38,571 nt of DNA from a virus. Taxonomy: Duplodnaviria > Heunggongvirae > Uroviricota > Caudoviricetes. This document shows positions 1 through 36,446 of the stretch, piece after piece. Location: IMG/VR virus record IMGVR_UViG_2541047961_000008; one strand, written 5' to 3'. The notes under the pieces were generated by a model. It worked only from the letters and a program-made list of their open reading frames with translations, searched no databases and had not been told where the DNA came from. Every line of letters starts with the position of its first letter. The first letter of the stretch is position 1. Made by a program: the position numbers and the translations under genes.

Positions 1-1020
1 TTAATCCCCCGTGGACACTGCGTGGACACTTACGCCACCTTTCAGCGGATTAAGGGCCACCGCATCCTGCAGGTAATCCGGTGCAAAATGCGCATATGCC
101 ATTGTTTGCTGAATAGTTGCGTGACCAAGAATCTTCTGAAGCGCAATAATGTTTCCTCCGTTCATCACAAAATGGCTGGCGAACGTATGCCGCAGCACAT
201 GTGCAGCCTGGCCTTTTGGTAAATCGGGCTTAACTCTTTTCAGCGCTAGGCAGAATTCCCGGTACTTCACCTCAAACAAGCCGCCTGTTTCTCTGGTTTT
301 GATCGCCTCACAAACTGCCTGCGAAATTGGCACTGTTCTCTTCCGGCCATTTTTGGTTTCAAGAAACGTTACACGGTTATGAACTATCTGTTCACCACGA
401 AGCTTACAAGCTTCACTCCAGCGCGCCCCTGTGCTTAAACACAAAAGCGCAACACGCCAGTAGTCGCCCTCCAGTGTATCGAGCAATAGCGCCACTTCCT
501 TCTGTGATAGGAACGCCATTTCTCGTGGAGATACATAAAGAATAGAAATTCCCCTTACTGGATGTTCTGCATCCCAAAGACCTATTTTTTTCAGCACGGT
601 AAACATTCCGGATAACCGATTCATGTACCTGTTAGCAGATGACGGTTTCAATCCTTCAGCTATCTTTTGAGAACGCCACGCGATAATTTTCAGCTTATCA
701 AGATCCACAGCCTGCATATCAGCGCCAAGCTCATTGATTATGTTGCGCAGTTGTTTTCGGTCTTCTTCCGCCTTACGCCTGTGCTGGCCGTGATACATCC
801 ACCACAACTCAAGCAAATCATTTAGCGTTCGACGATCACGGTAGCCCTGTATATATTCCCGCTTTTCAGCGTTCGCCATGATGTAGCGTTCAGTGGCCAC
901 CGCTACCGATTTTTTGTCAAATACCTTACGCACGCGCTTTCCCTTGCGTCCGTTCGGCCTGATGTCCAGCAAATAACGACCATCTTCGAGCTTCTTAATC
1001 GACATTACGAAGCCCTCCAA
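1..1020 (-). CDS. int: Tyrosine recombinase, P2-type prophage integrase
   Basis: 339-aa ORF ending exactly at window start; C-terminal catalytic region (ARWSE...HVLRHTFAS...MAYAHF) typical of tyrosine integrases; sits next to a P2 C-type repressor as in P2. Start may be the downstream Met (MSIKK). Confidence 0.9.
   Translation of the reverse strand: MEGFVMSIKKLEDGRYLLDIRPNGRKGKRVRKVFDKKSVAVATERYIMANAEKREYIQGYRDRRTLNDLLELWWMYHGQHRRKAEEDRKQLRNIINELGADMQAVDLDKLKIIAWRSQKIAEGLKPSSANRYMNRLSGMFTVLKKIGLWDAEHPVRGISILYVSPREMAFLSQKEVALLLDTLEGDYWRVALLCLSTGARWSEACKLRGEQIVHNRVTFLETKNGRKRTVPISQAVCEAIKTRETGGLFEVKYREFCLALKRVKPDLPKGQAAHVLRHTFASHFVMNGGNIIALQKILGHATIQQTMAYAHFAPDYLQDAVALNPLKGGVSVHAVSTGD
11..34. 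repeat. Tandem GTGGACAC-type half-repeats, candidate Int arm-type / att-associated site (left end)
   Basis: gtggacactgcgtggacacttacg; an imperfect copy (gtggtcactacgtggacatacg) occurs at 37391-37412 near the other prophage end. Confidence 0.35.
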
Positions 1021-1101: not shown

Positions 1102-1422
1102 TCAGCGGGGTAATTTTTGTTTTGTTTCGGTTGAATCCTGATCTCCCTCCGAATCGAAGAAGCCATCAAGAGAGAGAGGCGGAGCAATCTGCCCCGTCGC
1201 AGCATTAGTTTGATTAAACATCACCCAATCCGAATACTTCCGAAAACGAGGATGATTCAAAATCAGGAGTAACGTTTCTCCAGGTATCATTCTTCCCAAT
1301 ATTTCATAATTTTTGAGATTGTTTTGAGATACCCCTGTCACCTCTTCCATCTCTCTACGTGACAATCCCTCTGCCTCTCGAATCAGGCGAAGTTTTTCTC
1401 CAAGGCTTGATTTATGGATCAT
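1102..1422 (-). CDS. Immunity repressor, P2 C-type (HTH)
   Basis: HTH segment (LSRREMEEVTGVSQNNLKNYE) and C-terminal region (KYSDWVMFNQ...GQIAPPL) resemble my recollection of P2 C; divergent from the cox-like gene. Start taken at Met 7 of the 1102-1440 ORF; 1440 is the alternative. Confidence 0.8.
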   Translation of the reverse strand: MIHKSSLGEKLRLIREAEGLSRREMEEVTGVSQNNLKNYEILGRMIPGETLLLILNHPRFRKYSDWVMFNQTNAATGQIAPPLSLDGFFDSEGDQDSTETKQKLPR

Positions 1423-1440
1423 ATGTGATCTAAACTCCAC

Positions 1441-4106: not shown

Positions 4107-4428
4107 GAAACCAGAACATGCACACACAAAAAAACCGCTTGCCATGCCGCAATCAGTCAGGTTACATTTCCGCTGCACCTCACAAAACGGGTGCCGGGTT
4201 TCGCAGCCTGCTGACTACACAAGCGCACAACCGCGCCAGCGGTTTTTTTGTGCGTACTGTATTGCCACGTTTTTTTCGCGTCAGAATTATGGCGGGGCGT
4301 ACGGGGCCGACTTCGGTCGGGCCGGGTTCTTGTGTAGCCGGTACTGCGAACCTCGTACGTCTCGCCACCCACAGTTTCGCAGCTCTGGATGGTGAGTTTT
4401 CACAACTTACTACACAAGGGGCCACACC
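4107..4428 (+). other. Structured non-coding segment in the early operon (candidate leader/attenuator RNA or sRNA)
   Basis: No convincing ORF; perfect 15-bp inverted repeat cacaaaaaaaccgct (4125-4139) / agcggtttttttgtg (4238-4252); ~76-nt element 4291-4366 closed by a 13-bp stem with an internal hairpin capped by a UUCG tetraloop (4307-4320). Confidence 0.35.
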
Positions 4429-4659
4429 ATGGCAAACCGCAAACCACACCGCGCTATCGCGGAGCGTCGTCACATCCAGACTGAAATCGACCGCAGACTC
4501 ACCCGCGCTGCACACATCGCCTTTATCATGCAATCCAACACATTGCACAGACTCAACAGCACTATTTCAGCCGACTACTGCGCCGCTGTATTCAGCTATC
4601 TGGCGGAAGACCTCCTGTCTCTTCAGGATCTCATCCAGCAGCAAAACAAACTCCATTAA
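4429..4659 (+). CDS. Hypothetical early protein (76 aa)
   Basis: ORF immediately downstream of the structured element; weak aagggg RBS. Confidence 0.5.
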   Translation: MANRKPHRAIAERRHIQTEIDRRLTRAAHIAFIMQSNTLHRLNSTISADYCAAVFSYLAEDLLSLQDLIQQQNKLH

Positions 4660-4731
4660 TTCCTGTTCCGGGCCTTTCCTGCACCTTGCGGCGGGAGGCC
4701 TTCGCACATCTGTAACAAGAGGATTGCCGCA

Positions 4732-5097
4732 ATGATTCTCGCCAACGACTTTCTTGAATACCTGCTCAACACAGAACGTGATCTTGCCGCTCGCGTGCGT
4801 GATCGTTATGACATGTACCTGAAATCCCTGCCTGTACCGCAGCTCGCTGACGGAAAGATTGTTATTGATGGCCGCTACATGATTGACAGCCATGAGGGAA
4901 ATTACAGGCTTTACCGCATTGAAGGTGGCACCCCGTCCGTTATTGGCATTTACCAGCGCCCATCCTCTGCGATCGTCGATGTGATTGCAGACAGCATCCG
5001 CATCACACATCGCCATGCCGACACAGAAGACACCGTGCTGGAAATTCAGCGGCTGGCTACAGTCTGCCGCGACACCCTGAATGGCATGACGAAGTAA
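4732..5097 (+). CDS. Hypothetical early protein (121 aa)
   Basis: Strong RBS aagagga before the ATG; immediately upstream of replicase A. Confidence 0.6.
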   Translation: MILANDFLEYLLNTERDLAARVRDRYDMYLKSLPVPQLADGKIVIDGRYMIDSHEGNYRLYRIEGGTPSVIGIYQRPSSAIVDVIADSIRITHRHADTEDTVLEIQRLATVCRDTLNGMTK

Positions 5098-5103
5098 ATC
5101 ACT

Positions 5104-7926
5104 ATGACGGCAGAGTACATCAGGGACTGGCAACAACCGCGCCACGCAGTGGGACGTGAAGGAACGGGGATCCCCGTTCCTGAATCCGCGCTTTCCTCCT
5201 GGCTGGATGCCTACCGGGCAGAGAACGAGCGCCGCCAGGAAATGGCTGATGCGGCGTTCTCCGCCACGCCGCTGGGCAACCTGATTAATAAAAGCCTGGA
5301 TGCACAGGAAAAACAGGACAAAACCATCACACTGGCAGGAGACGCCAGAAAACAGGTACGCGGTGCGGTGGATGAAGCCATGGCCTCGCTGCGCCTGCTG
5401 CCGTCCTATCTGCGCGATCCGCTTATTCGCCACCTCTCCTTCCTGCGCAAAAAACAGGAAGCCGATCGCCGGAAAGGCAAAAAGAGCTGGCAGGCTGAAC
5501 GCTACGCGCGCGGAACCCTGCGCAAAATATTCGAACGTCTGGACCGCACCGACCACCGCTGGCTGACACCGGGTTATCGCTCCCTTGCCGGACGCGAACG
5601 CCTGGATGATTTGCTTTACCTGCCGCAGCTCAACAAGCACCAGATACAGACGCTGGCCACCATGACGGCGGCGATGTTCAGCAGCACCTTCGAAAAACTC
5701 TGCGATGGCTTTGGCGCGACTGATGGCGAGCTGACCATGGATGTAACGCTGAAGGCGTATCAGATGCTGGCCCGCATGGCGTTACACCTGCACGCCATGC
5801 CTCCGCATTATGACGCACTGACAACAGACAAAGACCGGAGGAACGAACCGGACACGGAGCTGCTGCCGGGCGCAATCCTTCGCCTGACCTGTGCGGAATG
5901 GTGGAAACGCAAACTGTGGCTGTTACGTTGCGAGTGGCGGGAAGAACAACTCCGCGCCGCCTGTCTGGTTTCCAGAAAAACATCGCCCTATCTGAGCCAG
6001 GACGCGTTAAGCGAGTTTCGCGCACAGCGCGAGAAAACACGCGATTTCCTGAAAAGTTTCATGCTGGAAAACGAAGACGGGTTCACGATTGATCTCGAGA
6101 CGGTGTATTACGCGGGAGTAAGTAACCCGGTTCATCGTAAGGCAGAAATGATGGCCACCATGAAGGGGCTGGAACTTCTGGCCGAAGCCCGTGGCGACAA
6201 AGCGGTGTTTCTGACTGTCACCTGCCCGTCAAAATACCACGCCACAACAGAGAACGGTCATCCGAATCCCAAATGGAACGGGGCCACCATGCGCGACTCC
6301 AGCGATTACCTAGTTAACACGTTTTTTGCGGCGGTCCGCAAGAAACTGAACCGCGACGGTCTGCGCTGGTATGGCATCCGCACGGTGGAGCCTCACCATG
6401 ACGGCACGGTGCACTGGCATATGATGGTCTTTGCACATCCGGACGAGATTGAAACCATCGTGTCCCACGTCTGCGATATTGCCATTCAGGAAGACCGCCA
6501 CGAGCTGGGCGATGACATAACTCCGCGTTTTAAGGCGGAGTACGTCGACGGCTCAAAAGGCACGCCAACCAGCTACATCGCCACCTACATCGGAAAGAAC
6601 CTGGACAGCCGCGCCGTGGATGGTATCGACCCGAAAACGGGCAAGCCACGCGTTGACCACGAAACCGGAAAATCAATGGCCGAGAGCGTGGAGCGCGCCA
6701 TCGGCTGGGCGCGCCTTCACCGGGTCCGCCAGTTCCAGTTCTTTGGTATCCCCTCCCGTCAGGTATGGCGTGAACTCCGCCGCCTTGCCAGCCAGATGGC
6801 ACGCAACCCGGAAGGCCCGCAACGGCTGAAGGATGACGCAATGGATGCGGTACTCGCTGCCGCTGATGCAGGATGTTTTGCCACCTACATAGAGAAACAG
6901 GGCGGCGTACTTGTTCCACGCAAAGACTACCTGATTCGCACCGCCTACGACCTCGCCGATGAGCTGAACGATTACGGCGAACAGAGCGTACAGATTTACG
7001 GGATCTGGTCACCACTCATCGGGGAATCCTCCCGTGTGTGCACGCATCCGGATAACTGGAAGCTGGTAAGACGCAAACCGGAAGCGGAAGACAGCGCCCG
7101 CGAAAATGGTTTTGACCTTCAGGGCGGCCCTGCCGCCCCTTGGACTCGTGGCAATAACTGTCCCCGTGTACAGGAAACAGGCAACAGCGGGACAGAACAG
7201 TCGGAAGAACGGCCAGCACCGTGGCCGCAGCTTCCTGACGGCGTTGAAGTGAACGAATGGATGCGCTCACTGAAACGGCACGAACGCCGGGCGCTGATGC
7301 GTTCGCTTCGTGACAAACAGGCAAAAAACAGCAGTGATGAAATGCAGAGCTGGACACAGAGCCGCAAACAGCAGCGGCCTTTGCCTGATAACCACGAATT
7401 ACTCGCTAAAGAATGGCGGGAGTCTGCTGAATCTCTCGGCCTGCATATCGGTGAACAACAGATGCAGCACCTGTTACGGGGCGGCAGCCTGTACGTTGAC
7501 GGCAGCATCATTGCACCGCAGGGATATGAAATTGTACGTAAACCGGATACCCGCCCGGACAGCCGAATCACGCAGCTCTGGCAACGCCTGAGCCGTAACC
7601 ACGGCGTAAGCAGCACGGAGATCCGCCATAACCCGGTCGCCAGCTATCTGGAACAACTAGGGGCATCAGACCCTGAAGCCGCCGCACGCCTGGCATCCAC
7701 ACTTCAGCAAGACCAGAACACCATGAAAACACCCGTTACCGTACTTTCTGACATGCTGCGCGCCATCCGCGACGCAGAGCACGAACAGAGAATCAGTGAA
7801 ACAACTGAACGCGCCCGCCGCAAAGCAGACCTGCTGCGGGGTGGCCTGACCAGTGGAAACAAAAAACAGACAAAAACGGGATTCACAAATCCCGTAAATG
7901 AGCAAAAAACGTGCCGCGATATATGA
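5104..7926 (+). CDS. A: Rolling-circle replication initiator (P2 gpA-like HUH endonuclease), 940 aa with a long C-terminal extension
   Basis: HUH motif (TVHWHMMVFAH) and active-site tyrosine motif (SYIATYIGKN); follows the early operon as in P2/186; C-terminal ~250 aa is R/Q-rich. Confidence 0.85.
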   Translation: MTAEYIRDWQQPRHAVGREGTGIPVPESALSSWLDAYRAENERRQEMADAAFSATPLGNLINKSLDAQEKQDKTITLAGDARKQVRGAVDEAMASLRLLPSYLRDPLIRHLSFLRKKQEADRRKGKKSWQAERYARGTLRKIFERLDRTDHRWLTPGYRSLAGRERLDDLLYLPQLNKHQIQTLATMTAAMFSSTFEKLCDGFGATDGELTMDVTLKAYQMLARMALHLHAMPPHYDALTTDKDRRNEPDTELLPGAILRLTCAEWWKRKLWLLRCEWREEQLRAACLVSRKTSPYLSQDALSEFRAQREKTRDFLKSFMLENEDGFTIDLETVYYAGVSNPVHRKAEMMATMKGLELLAEARGDKAVFLTVTCPSKYHATTENGHPNPKWNGATMRDSSDYLVNTFFAAVRKKLNRDGLRWYGIRTVEPHHDGTVHWHMMVFAHPDEIETIVSHVCDIAIQEDRHELGDDITPRFKAEYVDGSKGTPTSYIATYIGKNLDSRAVDGIDPKTGKPRVDHETGKSMAESVERAIGWARLHRVRQFQFFGIPSRQVWRELRRLASQMARNPEGPQRLKDDAMDAVLAAADAGCFATYIEKQGGVLVPRKDYLIRTAYDLADELNDYGEQSVQIYGIWSPLIGESSRVCTHPDNWKLVRRKPEAEDSARENGFDLQGGPAAPWTRGNNCPRVQETGNSGTEQSEERPAPWPQLPDGVEVNEWMRSLKRHERRALMRSLRDKQAKNSSDEMQSWTQSRKQQRPLPDNHELLAKEWRESAESLGLHIGEQQMQHLLRGGSLYVDGSIIAPQGYEIVRKPDTRPDSRITQLWQRLSRNHGVSSTEIRHNPVASYLEQLGASDPEAAARLASTLQQDQNTMKTPVTVLSDMLRAIRDAEHEQRISETTERARRKADLLRGGLTSGNKKQTKTGFTNPVNEQKTCRDI

Positions 7927-7971
7927 AGCGCGCACAAAACAGGCGAAAACGGGATTTAAAAATCCTGTAAC
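7871..7971. promoter_or_regulatory. Two 28-bp direct repeats each containing a palindrome; candidate parC-like centromere/operator
   Basis: caaaaacgggattcacaaatcccgtaaa (7871-7898) and cgaaaacgggatttaaaaatcctgtaac (7944-7971), 73 bp apart; overlap the 3' end of A and lie just upstream of the ParM-like gene. Confidence 0.4.
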
Positions 7972-8002
7972 CGATTAATTAATCAACATAAGGAAAAGCG
8001 AC

Positions 8003-8962
8003 ATGAAAATTTGTATCGACGACGGCTCCACCAACATCAAGCTGGCATGGACTGAGAACGGCGAACGCCGCAACGCCATCAGCCCGAACAGCTTCAAGTC
8101 GGAATGGTCTGCGCCGTTCGGTGGCACGCAGCCCGCGAACTACATGCTTGATGACGTGCGCTATGGTTTTGATCCGGTCAGCGATCGCTTTGTCCAGACG
8201 ACCGACACGCAATACCAGTACAGCGATGTGAATGTCATTGCCATTCATCACGCGCTGGTCAAATCAGGCATCACGCCACAGGCGGTGGATGTGGTTGTCA
8301 CCCTGCCACTGAGCGAGTATTTCGACACAAACGCACAGCCGGACATGGCCAACATCAACCGCAAAAAAGCGAACGTTATGCGCCCGGTGGAGTACCAGAA
8401 CGGCGAGGCATTCACTATCCGTAACGCGCGGGTTATGCCTGAATCCATTCCGGCTGGCTTTAAAGCACTGGCTGACATGAGTCCGTTTGAATCCCTGCTG
8501 ATTGTGGATTTGGGCGGAACCACGCTGGATGTGGCAAAGGTTCAGGGGCAACTGGCAGGTATCAGCCAGGTGTTTTGCGATCCACACGTAGGCGTTTCTC
8601 TGATGGCCGATGCCGTGCTGTCGGTGATGGCCACCAACGGTATGCGCACCAGTCACCACATCGCCAATACCATTATCGAACATCGCCACGATGAAGCCTG
8701 GCTGCGCCAGCACATCCACAATGACGCGCATTACGCCAGCCTGATGGCAGTTATTCGTGAAAAGGAAGAAACACTGAAACAACGCGTGATCCGCGCGCTG
8801 GCGGGTTTTTCGGGTTACGGGCGGGTGATGGTTGTCGGTGGCGGGGCGGAGATTGTGGCACCCGCTATCCGCGAAGCCTGCGGAGTTAATGCGACTTTCA
8901 TCGCGGACGGGGTGCCACAGTTTGCTCTGGTTAATGGGCTGTACGCAATGGACAAGGAGTAA
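8003..8962 (+). CDS. parM: Actin-like segregation ATPase, ParM/StbA family
   Basis: 319 aa; N-terminus KICIDDGSTNIKLAW and internal motifs (YSDVNVIAIHHAL, VMPESIPAGF, LIVDLGGTTLD, VMVVGGGAE, LVNGLY) closely track my recollection of plasmid R1 ParM. Confidence 0.85.
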   Translation: MKICIDDGSTNIKLAWTENGERRNAISPNSFKSEWSAPFGGTQPANYMLDDVRYGFDPVSDRFVQTTDTQYQYSDVNVIAIHHALVKSGITPQAVDVVVTLPLSEYFDTNAQPDMANINRKKANVMRPVEYQNGEAFTIRNARVMPESIPAGFKALADMSPFESLLIVDLGGTTLDVAKVQGQLAGISQVFCDPHVGVSLMADAVLSVMATNGMRTSHHIANTIIEHRHDEAWLRQHIHNDAHYASLMAVIREKEETLKQRVIRALAGFSGYGRVMVVGGGAEIVAPAIREACGVNATFIADGVPQFALVNGLYAMDKE

Positions 8963-8966
8963 ACCA

Positions 8967-9278
8967 ATGACGACACCAACCAGACGGATAAGTTTCTATC
9001 TGAAGCCCGCCGCCGTCAAGAACGAAGGCGAAGCATGCGCCTGGCTGGACAGCCTTACACCAGAAGCCCGCAAAAGCGGCCAACGCGTGGCTTTTCTGGC
9101 CGGGCTGGCACTTCTGAAAATGAATCCGGCAGAGGCTTACCGACTGGCTGCATGGGCTGATGATGAAGCGTTATCAGTGACACAAACCAGAGCAGAACGC
9201 CCTGCGACACCTCCAACGCCAACCACACAGATAACCAGCCAGATGGCCGGGAATATCCGGGCGTTATTTCCCGAATAA
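8967..9278 (+). CDS. parR: ParR/StbB-like centromere-binding adaptor
   Basis: 103 aa directly downstream of parM; RRISFYLKP...LDSLTPEARKSG...AFLAGLAL resembles the R1 ParR N-terminal RHH region as I recall it. Confidence 0.7.
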   Translation: MTTPTRRISFYLKPAAVKNEGEACAWLDSLTPEARKSGQRVAFLAGLALLKMNPAEAYRLAAWADDEALSVTQTRAERPATPPTPTTQITSQMAGNIRALFPE

Positions 9279-9330
9279 CACAACATCAGGGCGCATCCGC
9301 CCTGATGCCAACGCGCTAAAGGATAGTGAT

Positions 9331-11463
<2,133 letters not shown>

Positions 11464-11563
11464 ATGGATTGGTGTGCTGCTGTTCATGATATGAATGCCG
11501 GATTTGATGAAACGATTTTGTTCCCCTCGTCAGTTGAAAGCACAGCAGGATAAGGACTAACAC

Positions 11564-12497: not shown

Positions 12498-12824
12498 CTA
12501 ACCCGCCTGCAACAACTCCAGCGCCATCTGTTTTTCTTCCGGGCGCATTCGTTCAATCAACAGCTTTAACACGCCATTCTCCAGCCCGCTGGGCACCAGT
12601 GTGTGCGAGTAGGTCAGGTTCATCACCCAGGTGTGCCCACACTCGAGACGGGCGCAACGGTAATAAACATCTGCAAAGCGATCATCTTTCCAGAAGGTCT
12701 TCTCAATCACTGCGCGTTCACCACAGCAAAAACATCGCGCTTTTTGTCTGCGCATTTTCCACCTCCCAGAGCAGCGTTTTCCTGCTGCTGATTTTACCTG
12801 CTCTTTTCGCATGTCGCACATCAC
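12498..12824 (-). CDS. Ogr/Delta-family zinc-finger protein (late-gene activator-like) with C-terminal extension
   Basis: CFCCGER...17 aa...YYRCARLECGHTW matches the Ogr CxxC...YxxCxxxxCxxT(F/W) pattern; start overlaps the portal stop (ATGA). A downstream Met (MRRQKARCF) is an alternative start. Confidence 0.65.
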   Translation of the reverse strand: MMCDMRKEQVKSAAGKRCSGRWKMRRQKARCFCCGERAVIEKTFWKDDRFADVYYRCARLECGHTWVMNLTYSHTLVPSGLENGVLKLLIERMRPEEKQMALELLQAG

Positions 12825-13855
12825 TCCGGGGGCTCATCAAATTCAAGAATAAATTTCACCTCCCCCAGTCGCCTGATATCCGGGTCACTGTTGATTCCCT
12901 CCATGATCAGGCGGCGCATCGGAATAACCTCATCCCTGTAATATGCCTCGCGGGATTTCAGTGGGTCACCAAGCCCGGCCGTATTTGCGGGAATGATGCC
13001 GGCAAGTCCGGGTGGGAAACGGTGCGCAACGAGCTGATCCTGGGCACTGATGGTTTTTATATTCAGGAACTCATCTTTTGTACCTGAATCCCCGATAGGG
13101 ATCACCTTAACGCCTTCTTTGTCTCCGCCCGGTATATTGATAAACATGGATTTAAAATTGCCCACCCCTTTTGACGCCTCTATCTTTTTACGGAATTCCG
13201 CCTCGAGCTCGGGATCCATGTCCGGGTCAGTGGAATACAGGATATAACCAAGATGTGCGCCGTTCTTGTAATACTTGCGGCGAAAGCGGGTGGCATCCAC
13301 ATTCAGCATGGCGGATTCCATCCCGTGAATATAATCCGGGACACCGTAAACCTGCTGTTGTGGGTCATAAATGGCCACGAACACCACTTCGCCTGGCTGA
13401 TAAACGAGATCTTCCAGTGCTGCCTGCACAATCACCGTGCCACCCTCGTTGTTACGCCGCAGGTACAGAGAAGGTAACGTATGCAGGCGCACCACTCGAC
13501 CGAAGCCATTGCGCACTTTAAGCAACCCCATATCCCCGAATATCAGCAGATTGGTTACTGCTGCCGCCATGGCGGCGTGTGTCATACCACCACCACCCCG
13601 AAAACCCTGCATGATCATATTGACGCGCGCACGCAATACCGCGCCGTGATACGGTGCGATATTGGACAACATGGCGAGATCCATGCGCTCAATTGGCGGC
13701 GTGTACCAACCGTTATAGCCATCCCAGAGCGAGCCGTAATAACAGCCCCATGCAGCGACCGGCTCCGGGTCACCAAATTCAATAAACGTCATTTTGCTGG
13801 CTGTTTTTTTTGCCACGCCATCGTGTAACACGGGGTATTTTTTCTTTTTACTCAT
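12821..13855 (-). CDS. Q: Portal protein (P2 gpQ-like)
   Basis: 344 aa, the same length as I recall for P2 Q; downstream of the large terminase on the same strand. Confidence 0.9.
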   Translation of the reverse strand: MSKKKKYPVLHDGVAKKTASKMTFIEFGDPEPVAAWGCYYGSLWDGYNGWYTPPIERMDLAMLSNIAPYHGAVLRARVNMIMQGFRGGGGMTHAAMAAAVTNLLIFGDMGLLKVRNGFGRVVRLHTLPSLYLRRNNEGGTVIVQAALEDLVYQPGEVVFVAIYDPQQQVYGVPDYIHGMESAMLNVDATRFRRKYYKNGAHLGYILYSTDPDMDPELEAEFRKKIEASKGVGNFKSMFINIPGGDKEGVKVIPIGDSGTKDEFLNIKTISAQDQLVAHRFPPGLAGIIPANTAGLGDPLKSREAYYRDEVIPMRRLIMEGINSDPDIRRLGEVKFILEFDEPPE

Positions 13856-15635
13856 CTGACAGGATCCATGTTGATTTGCGCTTGTGCTTATAGTTCAGGG
13901 GTTCATTACTTGCGGCATGAGCTATGGCAAAGAAGATGTCAGCGTGCCCGGTTTCTTCGCTACGTTCGGCGGTAAAAGTAACTTTATTGCCACTGTTGGT
14001 GGATTCCTGACGAATGGCCAGGAACGATGCCGGAATATCCGTAGCTTCCTCATCCCACTCAATACGGTTGGCGTAAATCAGATCCAGCATCTTCATCACC
14101 AGGCGGTTTTTGGATTCCACGCTGTAATGAATGGCCACTGTTTCACGGCGGGCAAATCCCTGAACCAGCTCAAAGACACCGTAGCCAAGACCGGTGACGT
14201 CAATGCCGATAAACGTCATGTTATAGCGTGCCTTAATGCTGCGGATACGCTCTGCCATAAACTGGAATGACATGCTGCGCCAGTGGTGTTTTTCCAGCAC
14301 GCGGAATCGTTCTGCCGCAACCAGCGGCGGTGCCAGCACAACAAATGTGGCGTTATCGCCGGAGCGCGCAGGGTCAAAGCCGCCCCAAACCTCACGGTTA
14401 CCAAATGGCATGGGCTCTTCCGGGTGAAAATCCTCCCACGTACTAACATCAACACCACAACGCACAAGATCATCGAATTTAAAGACGCTCTCTTTGTCAT
14501 CCACAAACACACACATAAACAGCATATTGAACGCTGTTTCGTTGTATCGCTCGCGCAGCTCGTTGATGTCAGCAAGGTTAAAGCCGCCGGCAATGGCATC
14601 TTCCAGCGTAACCACATAGCGCCACTGACCATCCGGACATTCACGCCCACCATCGCGCAGCTCATCAAAGGACGGAAACTCAACCCCTTTTCGTTTCGGA
14701 TCGCCTTTGCGCCATTCATCGCCAGACCAGAACGGGTAACCCTGGTGTGTTTTGGATGACGGCGTGGAGAAATAGGTAATGCGCCAGTGTTTATGGGTGG
14801 CCATCCCTGATGCCACTTCATTGAGACAGCGAAAACCGGGGATCCACAGGTATTCATCAATATACAGGTGGCCGCTGTTTGACTGCGCTGTGTTACTGTT
14901 GGTCGCCAGAAAATACAGTTCAGCCAGATTACTTAACTTAACCGGATTGCCTTTAATGGGAATGCCAAACTCTGTTTGTGCAATTTTTACAATATAAGTA
15001 CGGAACACTTCGGCCTGACGTTTTGATGCCGATAAAAATATCTGTGTGTCGCCGGTTAATACTGCATCTTCAAATGCCTCAAACGCGAAGTAATACGTCG
15101 CCCCAATCTGGCGGGATTTAAGCAGGTTGCGTACACGGCGGAATTTGTTTTCACGCAGATGCAACTGATAAGCAAACAACTTTTTCGTAAACGGCTCAAA
15201 ACTTTCAGCAGTCAGTCCGGAAACGTCATTAGCTTTGCGGGGGCGCTCTTTCTTACCTGCACCTTTTTCTCCGCGTTCTTCTTTTCCATAACGACCAGAC
15301 TGGGGAATATCCGCTCCCATTCGTTCAATCTCGGCCATTCGTTCCGTGTGCTTGTTCCTGACCGACATCAGTTTGACGTGATGACCAATCAGGCGATCGA
15401 GTTCATCGTGCTCTTCCGGCGTTTTATGATCACGCTCCGCCAGTACAGCGAGACGACGGGCGATAACATCCTCCACGCCTTCAGTATTAAGCTGTGTGTA
15501 CCACTCAAACTTTGTCGCCCAGTAATAAACAATTCGCGGGCTGTTCAGTCCGAGCTTCTTTTGTATTTCTTTTGGTGTGTGCCTTTTCAGATAGAGCGAT
15601 TTTGCAGCAGCAATCACCTCATCAGAATACGCCAT
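13848..15635 (-). CDS. P: Terminase large (ATPase) subunit (P2 gpP-like)
   Basis: 595 aa; size and position divergent from the scaffold/capsid operon as in P2. Confidence 0.9.
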   Translation of the reverse strand: MAYSDEVIAAAKSLYLKRHTPKEIQKKLGLNSPRIVYYWATKFEWYTQLNTEGVEDVIARRLAVLAERDHKTPEEHDELDRLIGHHVKLMSVRNKHTERMAEIERMGADIPQSGRYGKEERGEKGAGKKERPRKANDVSGLTAESFEPFTKKLFAYQLHLRENKFRRVRNLLKSRQIGATYYFAFEAFEDAVLTGDTQIFLSASKRQAEVFRTYIVKIAQTEFGIPIKGNPVKLSNLAELYFLATNSNTAQSNSGHLYIDEYLWIPGFRCLNEVASGMATHKHWRITYFSTPSSKTHQGYPFWSGDEWRKGDPKRKGVEFPSFDELRDGGRECPDGQWRYVVTLEDAIAGGFNLADINELRERYNETAFNMLFMCVFVDDKESVFKFDDLVRCGVDVSTWEDFHPEEPMPFGNREVWGGFDPARSGDNATFVVLAPPLVAAERFRVLEKHHWRSMSFQFMAERIRSIKARYNMTFIGIDVTGLGYGVFELVQGFARRETVAIHYSVESKNRLVMKMLDLIYANRIEWDEEATDIPASFLAIRQESTNSGNKVTFTAERSEETGHADIFFAIAHAASNEPLNYKHKRKSTWILSDE

Positions 15636-15829
15636 AAATAAACCTCACCTGCTGATGCAATTTTAATTTATGCATTTTCAGCAAAGGCTTTTTTAAAAAC
15701 GAATATCGCTTTTCGGTATTTTTCGGATATATACGCATATCCGAAAGTACCGGAAATTAATCAGATGACGACATTTTCATTTCTCCGTTAAATAACGCCA
15801 GTTTAATTTTTATCAGCGGATTAATTCAG
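15636..15829. promoter_or_regulatory. Divergent late promoter region with palindromic activator-site candidates
   Basis: AT-rich 194-bp gap between divergent P and O; 39-bp near-perfect palindrome cggtatttttcggatatatacgcatatccgaaagtaccg and a TGCA-N11-TGCA dyad. Confidence 0.45.
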
Positions 15830-16720
15830 ATGTCGAAACTGAAAACAGACTGGGTGGTCGTAGCCACTTCAGGCCCCACCATCGACGGTCGGGAAATTGA
15901 TCCAAAGTGGCTGACGGATGCCGCCGAGGTTTATAACCCGGACGAACACACCGCCATGCTCTGGCCGTTTCATGCCAGCGCCGGCTGGCGTGCTTTCACC
16001 AATAACTATGGTCTTGTTGATGCACTGAAGGCGGAAAAAGTCGGTGATAAAGTGCAGCTGAAAGCCCGCCTGATACCAAACCGCTTTCTGACCGAAGCCA
16101 ACGAGGCTGGACAAAAACTTTTCACCTCCATAGAGGTAAAGGAAAACTACCTGGGAACAGGCAAATTCTTTGTATCCGGTATCGCCGTGACTGACACACC
16201 GGCCAGCATCAACACCACCCGCCTGCAATTTTCGCAGGGAGATTCCATTCACATGGGGAATGCAGAAGAACTGAATTTCACGCTGCAGTCTGACGACGAG
16301 CAGGCCAAACGCAGTTTCTTTTCCGGCCTTTTCTCCGTGGGACGCAACAAACAGGAAAACGATATGAACGAAAAACAGTTCGGTCAGTTGATGGACGCCA
16401 TCAACAAAACCGGCGAACGCCTGGACAAACTGGAAGAAAACGTCGCGCAGTTCAGCGCGAAGAATGCCCCGAAAGATACCGGTGATAACAAGCCGGAAGG
16501 CAGCGCCGGCGATCAGGGGCAGAACAACACAGAACAGAACAACAAGGACGACAAAACCTTCACGCTGACCATCGAGCAGGGCGAAAAGCTGTTCTCCACA
16601 GTGAACGCCATCGCGGAGAAGGTTACCAGTATGGAAACCGCATTTGCTGAACTCAGCAAGGACGCCACGAAGCTGCCGGGCAACAATCCGGCCGGTGGCG
16701 AAACTTTTAACCTGGTGTAA
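15830..16720 (+). CDS. O: Capsid scaffolding protein (P2 gpO-like)
   Basis: 296 aa, first gene of the rightward head operon; acidic coiled-coil-like middle region. Confidence 0.8.
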   Translation: MSKLKTDWVVVATSGPTIDGREIDPKWLTDAAEVYNPDEHTAMLWPFHASAGWRAFTNNYGLVDALKAEKVGDKVQLKARLIPNRFLTEANEAGQKLFTSIEVKENYLGTGKFFVSGIAVTDTPASINTTRLQFSQGDSIHMGNAEELNFTLQSDDEQAKRSFFSGLFSVGRNKQENDMNEKQFGQLMDAINKTGERLDKLEENVAQFSAKNAPKDTGDNKPEGSAGDQGQNNTEQNNKDDKTFTLTIEQGEKLFSTVNAIAEKVTSMETAFAELSKDATKLPGNNPAGGETFNLV

Positions 16721-16734
16721 CCGGAGAGAACGCA

Positions 16735-17748
16735 ATGAACATGACACCAGAAGCACAAAAGCTGGTTAATCAGTACATCAGCGAACTGCAAAAAACATTC
16801 AGTGACTGCGGAAAATCAAGCGATCGTTTCTTTTCGCTGACCGAGCCACGCAGTATTGCCCTGCGTAAAGCCCTGCTGGAAAGCACGGAATTTCTGAGTT
16901 TCACCACCTGTATGGACGTTCCGCATCCGCAAGGGCAGGTCGTCACCGTGGGCGAATCCACGCTGCGCACCGGTCGCGTGAAAAGCGGTCGTTTCGCTAA
17001 AGGTTCGGGCATTAAAGGCAACGAATTTAAACTCGTTGAAACTGATTCCTGCTGTGTGATCACCTGGGAACAACTCGCCATCTGGGCGAATGCCGGCAGC
17101 CCGAAGGAATTTTTCAACCTGATGAACTCCGCCGCCGTCACCAACTTTGCGCTGGATATGCTGCGCATTGGCTTTAACGGTAAAACAGCAGCGGAAAACT
17201 CTGACCCGGAAAGTCACCCGAACGGCGAAGACGTCAACATCGGCTGGCATGAAATCGCCAAAAAATGGGGAGAACTGCCCGGCAATACCTCCCGTATTCT
17301 GACGGACGCCGTTACCCTGGGCGAAGGCGGTGATTATGTCGGCCTTGATGCCATGGCCTCAGACCTGATCCGCACTTATATCCCGGCGCAATATCACAAC
17401 GATCCTCGCCTTACTGTGCTGGTTGGCGCAGACCTTGTGGCTGCTGAAGAACTACGCCTCTACAACAAAGAGGATAAGCCTACCGAAAAAGTGGCCGCAC
17501 AGTTGCTGACGAAGAACATTGCGGGCCGCAAGGCCATCATTCCGCCGTTTATGCCGGGCAAACGTATGGTGGTGACCATGCTGCCAAACCTGCAGATCCT
17601 GACGCTGAAAGGCTCCCGCCGCCGCAAGGCAGAAGATGTGGGCGATCGCAAACAGTTCGAAAACTCATACTGGCGTTACGAGGGGTACGCCCTGGGCGAT
17701 CCGGATTTATATGCTGCCGTGGATGAGTCTGCGGTCACCATCGCCTGA
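16735..17748 (+). CDS. N: Major capsid protein (P2 gpN-like)
   Basis: 337 aa; GFNGK...NIGWHEIAKKW...GEGGDYVGLDA segment resembles my recollection of P2 N; RBS ggagag. Confidence 0.85.
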   Translation: MNMTPEAQKLVNQYISELQKTFSDCGKSSDRFFSLTEPRSIALRKALLESTEFLSFTTCMDVPHPQGQVVTVGESTLRTGRVKSGRFAKGSGIKGNEFKLVETDSCCVITWEQLAIWANAGSPKEFFNLMNSAAVTNFALDMLRIGFNGKTAAENSDPESHPNGEDVNIGWHEIAKKWGELPGNTSRILTDAVTLGEGGDYVGLDAMASDLIRTYIPAQYHNDPRLTVLVGADLVAAEELRLYNKEDKPTEKVAAQLLTKNIAGRKAIIPPFMPGKRMVVTMLPNLQILTLKGSRRRKAEDVGDRKQFENSYWRYEGYALGDPDLYAAVDESAVTIA

Positions 17749-17765
17749 TAAACGGAGCACACGGT

Positions 17766-18476
17766 ATGCCAACGCCAATGCAGCGACAACGTGCCCGACA
17801 GATGGATGAGCGCCGTGCAGTGCTCATGACCAGAACAGACGGGCGCGCCGTCAGCACAGAGAGTCAGCACATTAAGCTGCTGGCACTGGATAACGACATC
17901 AGACAACTGCACAACATGGAGCTGCTGTCTGACAAGCTGGAATTCAAGCGGAACACGCTGCTGCCCCGCTGGCTGCCACACGCACAGGCTTATCTGGAGG
18001 GGGAACGCGTCTATCAGAATCCCATTCTGGTGTACTGCATCATCTGGCTGTTCGATACCGGGCAGTTTGAGATGGCGCTGCGGTGGGCTGACATTGCCAT
18101 TGAGCAGGGACAGAAGACGCCGGAGAACTTCAAAAGCGAGCTGCCAACGTTTGTGGCCCATTTCATTCTTGAATGGGCAGAAACCGAAGCAGAACGCGGG
18201 AACAGTATCGCGCCATATTTTCAGCAGGTGTTTGAAAAAATCCGCGACAAATGGCGTGTGAATGAACGCCTTGCTGCCCGCTACTGGCGCTTTGCAGGCG
18301 TCCTGCTGCTGCGCGGTGATGACGGTAAACCGCTGGCCAGTGCAATTAATGATCCGGGGATACTGCAACAGGCCGACCAGTGTCTGGAGCGGGCTGCCTG
18401 GCTGCATCCCAAAATTCAGGTGAAGACTCTGCGCCAGCGCATTGCCGCAAGACTGCGCGCGTTGCAGGGCACGTAA
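17766..18476 (+). CDS. M: Terminase small (endonuclease) subunit (P2 gpM-like)
   Basis: 236 aa, position after the capsid gene as in P2. Confidence 0.75.
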   Translation: MPTPMQRQRARQMDERRAVLMTRTDGRAVSTESQHIKLLALDNDIRQLHNMELLSDKLEFKRNTLLPRWLPHAQAYLEGERVYQNPILVYCIIWLFDTGQFEMALRWADIAIEQGQKTPENFKSELPTFVAHFILEWAETEAERGNSIAPYFQQVFEKIRDKWRVNERLAARYWRFAGVLLLRGDDGKPLASAINDPGILQQADQCLERAAWLHPKIQVKTLRQRIAARLRALQGT

Positions 18477-18574
18477 ACGACTCCCAACAACCGGGCGGGC
18501 GCGGTGGAGGTGTGCCGGCAAAAGCCATCAGCACACTGCGGAAACCGGTCAGTCCGCCTTTCCACGGAGCAAGC

Positions 18575-19069
18575 ATGTTTGACGGGAAAAGCATTCACTA
18601 TCAGCAGGCCATTATTCAGAACGATGGATTCTGGCCGGATATTGATGCCGGTGATTTTGAAAAGAGCCGCAGCATCCCCGCCGTCACGTCACACGAAACG
18701 GTGCTGACGGCGCTGCTTTGCGCGGTGACAGAGATTAACACTGAACTGGCTGCACGCCGTGAATACTGGCAGGAACAGGGCTACATCCGGGCCACTGATA
18801 TTCCGGGTTACACCGTGTTGCAACCAGAGTCGCGCAACACGGATGCACAACCTCAACGGATGCAGAACCACATTACAGCACTGTACACCAAGGCTGTGTA
18901 TGCACGCGCAAAGGCCGATCTTTTGCCGGAATCTGCCAGCGTGGGGCGGCGCGAGGCGCAGCCCTCATCAGAAGCCAGCGAGAGCCGTCGGACGTTGCTG
19001 GCTGAAGCGGCCATGGCGGTGCGGGCACTGTTGGGCCGACCGCGCGCCTCCATTGCACTGATTGATTAA
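18575..19069 (+). CDS. L: Head completion/stabilisation protein (P2 gpL-like)
   Basis: ATG at 18575 with ggagc RBS, in frame with ORF 18380-19069; FWPDID motif resembles P2 L (FFFPDID as I recall). Confidence 0.7.
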   Translation: MFDGKSIHYQQAIIQNDGFWPDIDAGDFEKSRSIPAVTSHETVLTALLCAVTEINTELAARREYWQEQGYIRATDIPGYTVLQPESRNTDAQPQRMQNHITALYTKAVYARAKADLLPESASVGRREAQPSSEASESRRTLLAEAAMAVRALLGRPRASIALID

Positions 19070-19078
19070 GGAAATGCT

Positions 19079-19552
19079 ATGACGCAACTTGCAAGCCTGA
19101 CGGCATTCATTGAAAACAATCTGCCGGCACGCACACGCATTCCGTTCACCAGTGACATGGATGACATCACGCTCGTTCCGTTCACGAAGTCGCTGGGGCA
19201 CGGGCAGTTATGCACACAGGTTCGAAAATACACAGCCATTCTGTGCTGGGACGCATGGCCCTATCGTCAGCTAGATCCGGATTTGGTGTTTTCTCTGGTT
19301 GAAGCCTGGCTGGCAGACAACGGCGGCGACTTGCGCCAGCGCCTGGCACCGGATGCGCCAGCCGTTGACGTCGGAGTGGATGATGAAAATGAAGTGGCAT
19401 GGCTGGAAATCAGTCTGCCGCTGGTTGATCCCATCACCCTGATTGAGGACGAAAACGGTCCCATCCCCAGAGGTGGGAAACGTTACCGGCTGGAAAAGCC
19501 TGAAATCTGGGTGGCTCAGGCGCATCAACTTCACTGTCAGGTGATGCCATGA
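19079..19552 (+). CDS. Putative tail completion protein (gpR-like)
   Basis: 157 aa, between head completion and S-like genes; assigned by size and position only. Confidence 0.45.
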   Translation: MTQLASLTAFIENNLPARTRIPFTSDMDDITLVPFTKSLGHGQLCTQVRKYTAILCWDAWPYRQLDPDLVFSLVEAWLADNGGDLRQRLAPDAPAVDVGVDDENEVAWLEISLPLVDPITLIEDENGPIPRGGKRYRLEKPEIWVAQAHQLHCQVMP

Positions 19553-20262
19553 CGCGCCCCGTGATTAATGAATCACAGCTCCGGCAGGTTCGTCGCGCCA
19601 TCAGAGAGGCAGAGCTTCCGCCGGCAAAGGCCAGAAAGCTGCTGGTTCGTATTGCGAAATACGGCCTGATGCCGGCTGCACGGCGCAATGTGAAAGCACA
19701 GCGAACACCAGAGGGGGCAGCCTGGGCACCACGAAAAAGACCGGATAAAGCCCGCGGCAAGTATAAAAACAAAATGCTGCTGGGACTGCCAAAACTGCTG
19801 GCCATCAGGGTTGACAGCGACGGGAAAAGTGTCCGCCTTTTCTTCAAAAAGGGGGACTACAACACCGGATCTCATGGCGGGGCGGTAGCATGGGTGCAAC
19901 AGCACGGTGCAACCATCAAAGGCCGCGCCACAAAACGCCGGGACAACGAAGCCATGCGCACCCGCCCCGCCACACGACGACAGGCGGAGCGGCTTCTTTC
20001 TCTGGGCTTTCGGGCCCCCGTTGGCGCAGTCAGCAAAAAAACCGGACGCAGGGGACGCAGAAAGCCCTCCCTGAAATGGATTATGGAAAACATGAGTATG
20101 GCGCAGGCCGGGCTGGTGATCAGCATCCTGAAAGGCGAGCAGAAAAAGCGTGTATGGGAAATCAAAATCCCCTCCCGCGCATTTCTGGGCGCCAGCGATG
20201 CTGAATTTACCCGCATTCTGGAAGCGCAGTTGCGCAGCCTGCATTACGGCGGCACGAGATAA
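19549..20262 (+). CDS. Putative virion morphogenesis / tail completion protein (gpS / Mu gpG family)
   Basis: 237 aa, translationally coupled; assigned mainly by position before the sheath gene. Confidence 0.5.
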   Translation: MTRPVINESQLRQVRRAIREAELPPAKARKLLVRIAKYGLMPAARRNVKAQRTPEGAAWAPRKRPDKARGKYKNKMLLGLPKLLAIRVDSDGKSVRLFFKKGDYNTGSHGGAVAWVQQHGATIKGRATKRRDNEAMRTRPATRRQAERLLSLGFRAPVGAVSKKTGRRGRRKPSLKWIMENMSMAQAGLVISILKGEQKKRVWEIKIPSRAFLGASDAEFTRILEAQLRSLHYGGTR

Positions 20263-35424: not shown

Positions 35425-36185
35425 TATCCACCACCTGATTAATGCGTTCTGCGTGCCATTCTGGCGCTGTATGCGCGCACCGCGTAAACGGTGTGACGTA
35501 AAGCGTGAGGTGACGTAAACCGCGCTACCCCCTCCAACCCGCGGGTTTTGTGTCGAAACAGTTTTTCAGTTTTCTGCCGTGCAAAAATGACCGCCAGCCC
35601 GCGCAGTAACTGAGGGAAAAGCGAAGATCTGAAATTTCACTCATGGAAATTTTTTGCAGTTTTCAGCGGGTTTTTTACGATCGCACAAATGGCAGGAGCA
35701 ATAAAACCGCATGATATTAAACGAGTTTTCATACTTTACGTGAGACGAGAAACGATCACGAAAGGATCGCATCAAAAAATCGTCAAACAACGAAGCCAGA
35801 CGCGGCGCGGCCTGCGTAAAATTAAGAGTCAAAATTAAACTGAAAAAAGGATCAATACAGCGCATCGATCGCACATGACGATCTACGCAGCAACAGGACA
35901 AAAAAACCGGCGCGAACGCCGGCGGAAGCATGTATCAAATGCGTGACTGAATAATGTCTGCGGTCGGGAATTTTATATCAAAAGGCTGACAGGCCTCAAC
36001 GGATTGAAACAAGGGAAAAAACCAGGCTAGAATTCGCGCGGGTGCCTTTCGGCTGATGGCTGGAGGGAATACCTGAAGGCCGGATGTGGAAAGGCCCCGG
36101 AAAACATTTTTGTTTAACCGAGGCCCTAACCATCTACCCTAGACAAGTGATAGGTTAGCGCCTCCCTAAAAAAGGAGCAAGCGCT

Positions 36186-36326
36186 ATGTCGCAAAAATCG
36201 CTTACGGCCATTACGTTCTGCGTAACGGCAATCCTCATCATCTGGATGCTGCACGGTTCGCTGTGTGAAATACGGATGAGCTTCTGGGGAGCGGAGTTTG
36301 CGGCGTTCTTACAGTGTAAGCAGTAA
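36186..36326 (+). CDS. hok: Hok/Gef-family type I toxin (46 aa)
   Basis: MSQKSLTAITFCVTAILIIWMLHGSLCEIRMSFWGAEFAAFLQCKQ: one TM helix plus the SLCEIR...AAF motif of Hok-family toxins; RBS aaggag. Confidence 0.6.
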   Translation: MSQKSLTAITFCVTAILIIWMLHGSLCEIRMSFWGAEFAAFLQCKQ

Positions 36327-36410
36327 GGAAACCGCGACGGGGGAGCAATCCCCCGTCAATCGGTTGTCAGGGCAAGACTGATAAGGCACCCTATACACAT
36401 CCCAAAGCAG

Positions 36411-36446
36411 AAACCCGCAGCGTAAAAACTGCGGGTTTTCTTTTTG
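36411..36446 (+). terminator. Rho-independent terminator downstream of the hok-like gene
   Basis: aacccgcag-cgtaaaaa-ctgcgggtt followed by ttctttttgg; a second hairpin (ccctcac-aag-tgaggg) follows. Confidence 0.65.

Follow-up and report, generated by a model that had tools for sequence, protein, structure and literature searches.

The parM and parR genes that lie between the replication gene gpA and the portal gene of an integrated P2-family prophage have about an even chance of being a functional R1-class type II (ParMRC) DNA-segregation operon, fixed in a P88-like replication module and acting on the extrachromosomal phage circle. The window, meaning the whole stretch of 38,571 nucleotides that was analysed, directly establishes, together with the related loci, what the genes are, that they are intact, that purifying selection acts, that the cis repeats are conserved, that the cassette is linked to gpA and that the element is integrated in a chromosome. 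The features are the following:

1-1020, minus strand: integrase, at the left end of the prophage
1102-1440, minus strand: C repressor
1538-1825: cox
5104-7926, plus strand: gpA replication endonuclease, 940 aa, the cassette's replicon partner (Pfam Phage_GPA, E 7e-130)
7860-7897: repeat 1, candidate parC/operator, with the perfect palindrome ACGGGATT-CACA-AATCCCGT at 7876-7895
7933-7970: repeat 2, candidate parC/operator, with the palindrome ACGGGATT-TAAA-AATCCTGT at 7949-7968
7973-7998, plus strand: conserved AT-rich box (GATTAATTAATCAACATAAGGAAAAG), a possible -10 region and putative parM ribosome-binding site
8003-8962, plus strand: parM, actin-like ATPase, 319 aa, intact (Pfam and R1 structure matches)
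8967-9278, plus strand: parR, ribbon-helix-helix-type adaptor, 103 aa, intact (PF10784 Plasmid_stab_B, E 2.5e-24)
9284-9307, plus strand: hairpin with a 10-bp stem and a 4-nt loop, at the close of the operon (arms 9284-9293 and 9298-9307, 100% complementary)
12498-12824, minus strand: ogr-like gene
12821-13855, minus strand: portal
13848-15635, minus strand: terminase
37576-38571: flk, a core host gene, at the right end

The presence of flk indicates that the element is integrated in the chromosome, and with the integrase at one end and this host gene at the other, the window copy is not carried extrachromosomally at low copy number. An earlier note made from the sequence had placed a ParM/ParR cassette between A and the head genes of an integrated P2-like prophage, and the positions of gpA, portal, integrase and flk agree with this.

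ParM was recognized in that note as a homolog, and the assignment holds over the full-length open reading frame. Both Pfam halves are matched (StbA_N, E 1.8e-80; the ParM C-terminal domain, E 1.2e-68), and residues 2-316 match the structures of R1 ParM (1mwk) at E 2e-90. The nucleotide-binding motifs DDGSTN, MPESIPAG, DLGGTTLD and GGGAE are intact and identical to those of R1 ParM. Purifying selection on ParM is strong, with dN/dS values of 0.05-0.24. The ParMs of the E. coli and Hafnia phages share 94% identity, while gpA of the same phages shows only 63.5% identity.

The Shine-Dalgarno sequence of parR, AAGGAG, is situated within the 3' end of parM. The match of its product to PF10784 bears out the suggestion that it is a ParR-like adaptor. 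The structure of ParR from pB171 (2JD3) was matched at E 1.1e-15 by a profile of diverse ParRs including that of the window, and it is also the top match for a profile of the P88-group ParRs only (E 0.0078). Judged from its sequence, the N-terminus of ParR is of the ribbon-helix-helix DNA-binding type. Conservation among the P88-group alleles covers the first 50 residues and the C-terminal NIRALFPE tail, and the variable part is the linker. This tail, QMAGNIRALFPE, is kept in all P88-group alleles, contains the motif N-x-x-x-L-F-P and aligns through an invariant Asn with the tail of R1 ParR, KKNAMKLIN, making it a candidate ParM-binding tail.

The two direct repeats upstream of parM are 38 nt each, 84% identical and 73 bp apart from start to start. 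The earlier note described two 28-bp repeats with internal palindromes; both the repeats and the palindromes are present, but the length was underestimated. Repeat 1 is not intergenic and lies within the last codons of gpA, the stop codon of which is at 7924-7926, while the distance from the end of repeat 2 to the parM ATG is 35 bp. Allowing up to three mismatches, the pattern ACGGGATT-N4-AATCCCGT occurs at only two sites in the 38.6 kb, both in the repeats; the number expected from shuffled sequence is 0.12, and two or more sites were found in none of 100 shuffles. Twelve loci keep the repeat sequence. In Hafnia the palindrome loop contains the stop codon of gpA, and therefore conservation of the repeat there is not due to gpA coding alone. 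A Plesiomonas locus (L017) shows the same two-copy layout with 72-bp spacing and a different inner sequence (GCGGGACAAC..ACCC), and the Serratia and Enterobacter loci contain two sites each as well. No obvious repeats were seen upstream in the related lineage L025. The AT-rich box that follows repeat 2 is kept in the E. coli, Hafnia and Plesiomonas loci despite a parM nucleotide identity of ~63%.

The perfect hairpin after parR is present as previously described. The folded stretch has an energy of about -22 kcal/mol and no T-run follows it on the plus strand. Homologous hairpins are found 3' of parR in P88, in Hafnia and in the loci L003 and L004, and a terminator occupies the same place in R1 and in the Enterobacter locus L019.

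The closest described relative is Escherichia phage P88 (NC_026014, gp17/gp18; Xuanwuvirus), whose ParM and ParR are 99.1% and 95% identical to those of the window and are annotated as “plasmid segregation protein ParM” and “partition protein”. P88 has the same repeats and the same hairpin. Positions 4125-9307 of the window and 4978-10160 of P88 are 95.9% identical at the nucleotide level, and this collinear block, Ash-orf-gpA-parM-parR, ends at the hairpin, with homology stopping at 9307, its exact last position. All 14 phage records with a P88-type gpA carry parMR, and the pair of gpA and parMR goes together across differing structural modules. Sequence comparison thus identifies the cassette as a conserved component of the P88-type (Xuanwuvirus-type) replication module. 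An IS100 element is inserted just downstream of parR in the window copy, which is a difference from P88.

The other half of the prophage is of a different type. No megablast match to the structural region 12821-20000 was found among 50,697 phage records. Portal and terminase, with 344 and 595 aa, belong to the type found in L002 and L008-L010; those of P88 have 348 and 583 aa. Membership of the whole genome in Xuanwuvirus was considered and rejected, as its late and structural genes are unlike those of P88 and resemble those of L002 and L008-L010. By these comparisons the prophage is a mosaic of a P88-type replication module and a structural half of another type.

The earlier note implied a feature of one prophage, yet the cassette is common: the gpA-parM-parR block is present in 1304 of 5426 complete E. 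coli genomes (24%). A survey of P2-like prophages for parMR at this locus, which the same note had proposed, yielded six lineages from several genera with the same slot occupied, and parMR resides between gpA and portal in prophages of Hafnia, Plesiomonas, Serratia and Enterobacter. The ParMs of the six lineages, with identities down to 53%, cluster apart from plasmid ParMs; identity is 95-99% inside the phage group and at most ~52% to the closest plasmid ParMs. A larger inserted plasmid fragment is excluded by the conserved P88 module, the separate ParM lineage and this distance from plasmid ParMs.

The prototype of type II systems, parMRC (stbAB) of R1/NR1, has the same order of repeats, parM, parR and terminal hairpin. 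R1 ParR belongs to the same Pfam family, and its RRxIxFxLxP strand at the N-terminus and N-x-x-x-L tail at the C-terminus recur in the phage protein. The ParMs are only ~46% identical, however, and the window ParR, with 103 aa against 117 aa in R1, is without one middle helix segment. The cis sites differ as well: two 38-nt palindromic repeats 73 bp apart, the first in the coding region of gpA, take the place of the ten 11-bp A/C-rich iterons arranged in two blocks in R1. With two units against ten, the repeats are a candidate parC. The replicon here is an integrating rolling-circle phage of the P2 type, while R1 is a low-copy theta plasmid.

It is hypothesized that ParR binds to the repeats, that filaments drive movement and that both occur at a particular stage of the life cycle, as follows. 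ParR dimers would bind the two palindromic repeats through their ribbon-helix-helix N-termini, and the two repeats together would form a small centromere with four half-sites. Since repeat 2 directly borders the start region of parM, the repeats would probably double as the operator of the operon. The C-terminal tail of ParR would then capture the ends of ATP-ParM filaments, and the growing filaments would push paired circular phage genomes apart. The substrate would be the circular extrachromosomal phage, either after infection and before integration, or after excision. The gain would be that replicated circles reach both daughter cells, or stay separated and positioned, and are not lost or clumped. 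The outcome would be a transient, facultative plasmid-like phase and no permanent plasmid carriage.

In complete E. coli genomes 1450 of the 1452 copies of the block are chromosomal, and therefore any plasmid phase is short or rare. Replication by gpA of the P2 type is normally off under the immunity repressor, and ParMRC requires at least two copies of its substrate. A repressed episome would therefore not replicate, which argues against partition. One circular extrachromosomal P88-like replicon has been deposited as a complete record of 34,461 bp, the only such record found; a sister strain holds an identical phage in integrated form, and the circle could be no more than phage DNA that was excised or induced in the culture used for sequencing.

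By analogy, the best functional precedent for a plasmid phase is srpMRC of the SXT/R391 integrative and conjugative elements. There the system makes loss of the excised circle, a transient state, less frequent, and just four repeats of 13 bp make up its centromere (Carraro et al. 2015, PMC4489591). As here, an actin-type type II system is carried by an element that is normally integrated in the chromosome. The host of srpMRC is a conjugative element and not a phage, and SrpM is only distantly related to ParM while SrpR has no homology to ParR (PMC4489591), whereas the window proteins are clearly R1-class.

The strongest competing explanation, tentative and drawn by analogy, is that the proteins organize lytic replication. 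In such a case the early lytic promoter would drive gpA and parMR together once the phage has been induced or has infected a cell. ParM filaments, tethered by ParR to the repeats, would position or disperse the monomeric circles as these replicate, making replication and packaging efficient, and the system would contribute nothing to inheritance or to carriage as a plasmid. Prophage CGP3 of Corynebacterium glutamicum offers a direct precedent: AlpA attaches to DNA upstream of its operon and links the circular form of CGP3 to AlpC filaments, both proteins are induced early, and efficient replication of the phage requires them (Donovan et al. 2015, PMC4446434). CGP3 is likewise an integrated prophage with an actin-like protein and a co-transcribed adaptor that binds upstream repeats, and the role shown for AlpAC is efficient replication of phage DNA after induction, not partition. 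The analogy is functional only: AlpC is from another family of actin-like proteins, in a siphovirus-like element of a Gram-positive host, and the window proteins fall in the ParM and ParR families.

The arrangement of the locus suits such a lytic role: parM starts 76 bp past gpA on the same strand with no plus-strand terminator in between, the association with the replication gene holds tightly in phages whose structural modules differ, and nearly all copies are integrated. A scan for consensus promoters upstream of parM found none, and parMR expression may therefore rely on read-through from the early lytic operon. However, the same scan also missed the known promoter of R1, and therefore the absence of a parM promoter is not established. 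In the Enterobacter locus L019, parMR is located two genes from gpA with its own repeats and a canonical terminator, giving it the look of an autonomous operon. Moreover, most P2-like phages replicate well without a par system, which only about one quarter carry.

A stronger form of the partition reading, which appears rather unlikely, is that P88-like phages are facultative phage-plasmids, in which a gpA-driven circle persists for generations as a ParMR-partitioned episome with a minimal two-site centromere at the end of the replication gene, integration being one of two stable lysogenic states. If true, this would be the first rolling-circle, integrase-bearing lineage of Peduoviridae with an active partition phase, and would show the minimum size of a working type II centromere. 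An R1-class pair on a temperate phage is represented by StbA/StbB of the P1-like phage-plasmid D6, but D6 is an obligate plasmid prophage without a P2 replication module, and its ParM is only 47.5% identical.

It is improbable that the integrated prophage expresses ParM and ParR to the advantage of the lysogen or of itself, either against other DNA, through incompatibility or interference with related phages and plasmids, or on the host chromosome at the repeats. The cassette does lie at the edge of the gpA-to-portal hotspot, which holds anti-phage and accessory cargo (PMC9122126), and a study of Citrobacter phiSM names the gene as a possible fitness factor (PMC6456863). ParR alleles also diverge, with 51-92% identity within contexts otherwise 95-98% identical, a diversification resembling that of conflict systems. 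This variation is in the linker, however, and both the DNA-binding N-terminal part and the candidate ParM-binding tail are kept. Unlike true hotspot cargo, parMR always occupies the same position and shows strong conservation. The repeats are retained along with the genes, which points to a system acting in cis on DNA of the phage itself, and the distance from plasmid ParMs makes cross-talk unlikely. That the cassette is an inert relic of a plasmid fragment, captured in the accessory slot of P2 and now decaying, as its closest characterised relatives being plasmid genes, the slot being known for accessory cargo and IS100 having landed nearby could suggest, is extremely improbable and effectively refuted by the selection and distribution data, given two intact reading frames with dN/dS far below 1, no flanking plasmid DNA, one invariable slot in the 1304 E. 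coli genomes and six lineages, and the identity gap to plasmids.

The finding itself is already known, in that RefSeq annotates the genes and the idea of plasmid maintenance is in print (Rousset et al.). Episomal partition, if true, would mean that P2-family temperate phages blur into phage-plasmids, and would bear on prophage stability, on lysogenisation where the attachment site is occupied, and on prophage-detection tools that sort elements by integrase and partition genes. A lytic organizer, if true, would be a Gram-negative counterpart of AlpAC of CGP3. Under either of these readings, the site with its two palindromes is small and lends itself readily to testing as a putative minimal centromere of type II.

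The window holds a P2-family prophage. Its feature order is as follows, with strand given where assigned.

Features of the prophage
1-1020, minus strand, integrase
1102-1440, minus strand, C-type repressor
1538-1825, cox
4118-4735, Ash-family protein
5104-7926, gpA (P2-type replication endonuclease)
7860-7897 and 7933-7970, two copies of a direct repeat, 38 nt each, 84% identical, 73 bp apart
8003-8962, plus strand, parM, 319 aa
8967-9278, plus strand, parR, 103 aa
9284-9307, hairpin with a perfect 10-bp stem and a 4-nt loop
9510-11462, IS21-family element (IS100/IS100kyp type), 1953 bp, with istA at 9595-10617 and istB at 10614-11396
12498-12824, minus strand, ogr-like gene, following parM, parR and a short cargo stretch
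12821-13855, minus strand, portal
13848-15635, minus strand, terminase, with capsid and tail genes next

At the right end lies flk, a host core gene found in 5426/5426 complete E. coli genomes, which places the element within an Escherichia chromosome as an integrated copy; together with the P2-family gene layout, this supports the integrated P2-like prophage proposed in an earlier note. The cassette lies between gpA and the portal, and the comparison made there with the slot that holds tin and old in P2 is correct (PMC9122126). The stretches 36016-36456 and 36516-38571 contain a Hok/Gef-type toxin region, with homology to the right end of Escherichia phage P88 (NC_026014, Xuanwuvirus), and a DUF4875 gene, which adjoin flk and mark the right prophage-chromosome junction. 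Full-length E. coli matches to the right flanking DNA reach at best only about 96-97% identity. A tRNA search for the attachment site found none within the window.

ParM matches both Pfam halves of the family, StbA_N (E 1.8e-80) and the ParM C-terminal domain (E 1.2e-68), and the crystal and cryo-EM sequences of ParM from plasmid R1 align with it end to end (E 2e-90), which bears out the claimed ParM homologue. The phosphate-1, catalytic, phosphate-2 and adenosine motifs are all kept (DDGSTN, MPESIPAG, DLGGTTLD and GGGAE). The claimed ParR-like adaptor is equally well founded. The protein belongs to PF10784, the StbB/ParR family (E 2.5e-24); as a single sequence it gave no meaningful match among solved structures, and profiles were required. 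A profile of diverse ParRs, including that of the window, matches the ribbon-helix-helix ParR structure of plasmid pB171 (2JD3) with E 1.1e-15, and a profile from the phage group alone also ranks 2JD3 first (E 0.0078). The two genes are closely packed on the same strand, with the parR start 5 bases past the parM stop and AAGGAG as the parR ribosome-binding site. The cassette is real and intact. Judged from its sequence, it has both genes and a candidate cis site for a full ParMRC machine under selection, which would be a type II partition system of the R1 class, and is almost certainly functional.

The upstream direct repeats with palindromes that had been put forward earlier do exist; at 38 nt they are longer than was claimed, and repeat 1 is not intergenic, since it lies within the last codons of gpA (stop codon at 7924-7926). 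Each repeat contains the palindrome ACGGGATT-N4-AATCCCGT. With at most three mismatches allowed, this pattern occurs in the 38.6-kb window only at the two repeat sites, against a shuffled expectation of 0.12. The repeats are conserved in 12/12 aligned loci, with the palindrome arms kept and the loops variable. In Hafnia, palindrome 1 has the gpA stop codon in its loop, and gpA coding alone therefore does not account for the conservation at that site. Conserved arms with variable loops are what a protein-binding site predicts, and the repeats are a candidate for such a site; this pattern fits a DNA site of that kind better than RNA hairpins.

The site differs between lineages. In Plesiomonas, with a ParM of 62% identity, two 26-nt repeats (GCGGGACAAC..ACCC) lie 72 bp apart in the same place; they retain the outer CGGG-N10-CCC(G/A) with a different interior, and the ParR strand RRISFYL is unchanged. 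Serratia and Enterobacter carry a different pair of sites of ~20 nt in inverted orientation, and their ParR N-terminus is also different (NRKISFYL). No obvious repeats were seen upstream in a second Hafnia lineage. While parC of R1 has ten A/C-rich 11-bp iterons, the phage systems have two units, and thus share a reduced two-unit layout. In srpMRC, the partition system of ICE R391, four short repeats (srpC) suffice as a working type II centromere (PMC4489591). A scan of 7500-9700 for consensus sigma-70 promoters found none; because the promoter known to lie in R1 parC escapes the same scan, the result is uninformative on an autonomous promoter. Between repeat 2 and the parM ATG there is a conserved ATTAAT box, followed by the ribosome-binding site.

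The perfect 10-bp-stem hairpin reported after parR was confirmed at 9284-9307. It is not a canonical intrinsic terminator, as no T-run follows on the plus strand. Homologous stem-loops are present 3' of parR in P88, two other loci and Hafnia, and in R1 and the Enterobacter prophage the corresponding position is taken by a strong hairpin or a canonical terminator. On purely positional grounds the hairpin is probably the 3' end of the operon or an RNA 3' stabiliser. It is also a recombination boundary of the module, with homology to P88 ending exactly at 9307, its last base. About 200 bp downstream of the hairpin, the IS100-type element splits a small cargo ORF (start at 9331) and leaves parMR untouched; it is flanked by the target duplication AATGG (9505-9509 and 11463-11467).

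In the phage collection, 14 records match the region 7800-9330 with 94-97% identity, among them P88, P884B11 (Xuanwuvirus), Citrobacter phiSM, 520873 and 503458; there the two genes carry the annotations ParM and partition protein. The region is present in 1304/5426 complete E. coli genomes, with 1450/1452 copies chromosomal. Phage records with a P88-type gpA also carry parMR (14/14), and the counts in E. coli are similar, with P88-type gpA in 1355 genomes (at least 80% coverage) and parMR in 1304. Plasmid ParMs found by tblastn reach at most about 52% identity, and the gap is empty up to the phage group at 95-99%; ParM of the P1-like phage-plasmid D6 is 47.5% identical. The survey of P2-like prophages located ParMs of 53-62% identity in Hafnia, Plesiomonas, Serratia and Enterobacter, all in the gpA-to-portal slot and each followed by a PF10784 ParR. 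A scan of species-representative genomes for ParM recovered three near-identical loci only, the distant relatives coming from protein searches and contig look-ups. In a neighbour-joining tree (no support values), the prophage ParMs cluster apart from plasmid and ICE ParMs. With 14 phage records, 1304 E. coli genomes and the same slot in other genera, a captured fragment of a larger plasmid is rejected, and the cassette is a phage hallmark.

The early, replication and par block (4125-9307) is about 96% identical to P88. The structural half (12821-20000, portal-terminase-capsid) has no megablast match among 50,697 phage records; its matches, at 94-95%, are with prophages of E. albertii and of other Escherichia contigs (loci L002 and L008-L010). 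By these comparisons the prophage is a mosaic, and gpA and parMR therefore move as a module across virion types. A 97%-identical Escherichia-type gpA-parM-parR block also occurs on a 226-kb contig labelled "Vagococcus sp. WN89Y" (L003, NZ_JBQPOM010000071.1), which in a Gram-positive assembly is most likely enterobacterial DNA contamination. In Dickeya (L021, CM001975.1) a chromosomal parM-parR pair, with ParM 48% identical, adjoins TraG and TraU genes and an integrase, and is probably part of an integrative conjugative element with type II partition, a case comparable to SXT/R391.

The cassette itself is already known. Annotations of its genes exist in RefSeq and in the reference genome of P88, Magaziner et al. 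2019 listed the phiSM gene among possible fitness factors, and Rousset et al. have published both the observation and the interpretation of the earlier note; the 24% of E. coli genomes found here agrees with theirs. No functional study of the cassette was found in the literature. New in the present analysis are the delimitation of two palindromes as a candidate centromere, with evidence that they are conserved, the way in which ParR alleles differ, estimates of selection, the association with gpA, and the occurrence of this gene arrangement in P2-like prophages of five genera. The remaining interest is modest and concerns the role of a partition system for an integrating phage.

Compared with nine close relatives and with its homologue from Hafnia, parM gives dN/dS values of 0.05-0.24. 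The ParM proteins of the E. coli and Hafnia phages share 94% identity (dS 0.58, dN 0.029). In the same pair (Hafnia locus L012) the adjacent gpA shows only 63.5% amino acid identity, which suggests that ParM is unusually constrained or that phage lineages have recently exchanged parM.

The ParR alleles are sharply divergent, with 51-92% identity among E. coli prophages whose parM and gpA are 95-98% identical, and homology breakpoints lie inside parR at about 9021 and 9119. The differences are restricted to the linker; the DNA-binding residues 1-50 and the C-terminal NIRALFPE are nearly invariant. This tail aligns with that of R1 ParR via an invariant Asn; the C-terminal peptide of R1 ParR is reportedly its ParM-binding part, in work by Gayathri et al. 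in 2012. A cause of the allele diversification was looked for and none was found.

On the most economical reading, ParR sitting on both palindromes would couple circular phage genomes to growing ParM filaments; the parts of a ParMRC system occur with a candidate cis site on phage DNA beside a replication gene. The stage of action that we infer, with roughly even confidence, is a transient plasmid-like phase that follows infection or excision, when replicated circles would be handed to both daughter cells. The srpMRC system of ICE R391 is a supporting precedent (PMC4489591). A complete P88-like genome with an integrase is also recorded in PLSDB as a 34,461-bp circular "plasmid" (NZ_CP148288.1) of E. 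coli Z1323PEC0009, a cat isolate; a sister strain, the human isolate Z1323HEC0067, carries this phage as an integrated copy in its chromosome (NZ_CP148378.1; 100% identity over 12.4 kb). The circular record is either a true episome or excised phage DNA, and is counted as support for the plasmid-like phase. Against such a phase, nearly every copy is integrated (1450/1452 chromosomal). Replication by gpA is, moreover, repressed in P2 lysogens.

As the main alternative, and more tentatively, the cassette might organise lytic replication, as the actin/adaptor pair AlpC/AlpA (AlpAC) of the Corynebacterium glutamicum prophage CGP3 would suggest by analogy (PMC4446434); the close spacing of parMR behind gpA is in line with this. 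A role in competition or conversion is unlikely, and an inert relic is very improbable.

Within gpA, ~0.7 kb upstream of the repeats, a patch of ~50 bp (7120-7169, GGCGGCCCTGCCGCCCCTTGGACTCGTGGCAATAACTGTCCCCG...) is ~90% identical in Fels-2, SEN8, many Klebsiella P2-like phages and one Yersinia phage, in which the remainder of gpA has no match at the DNA level. P2-type phages have their replication origin, or nick site, within gene A, and the patch may be this site.
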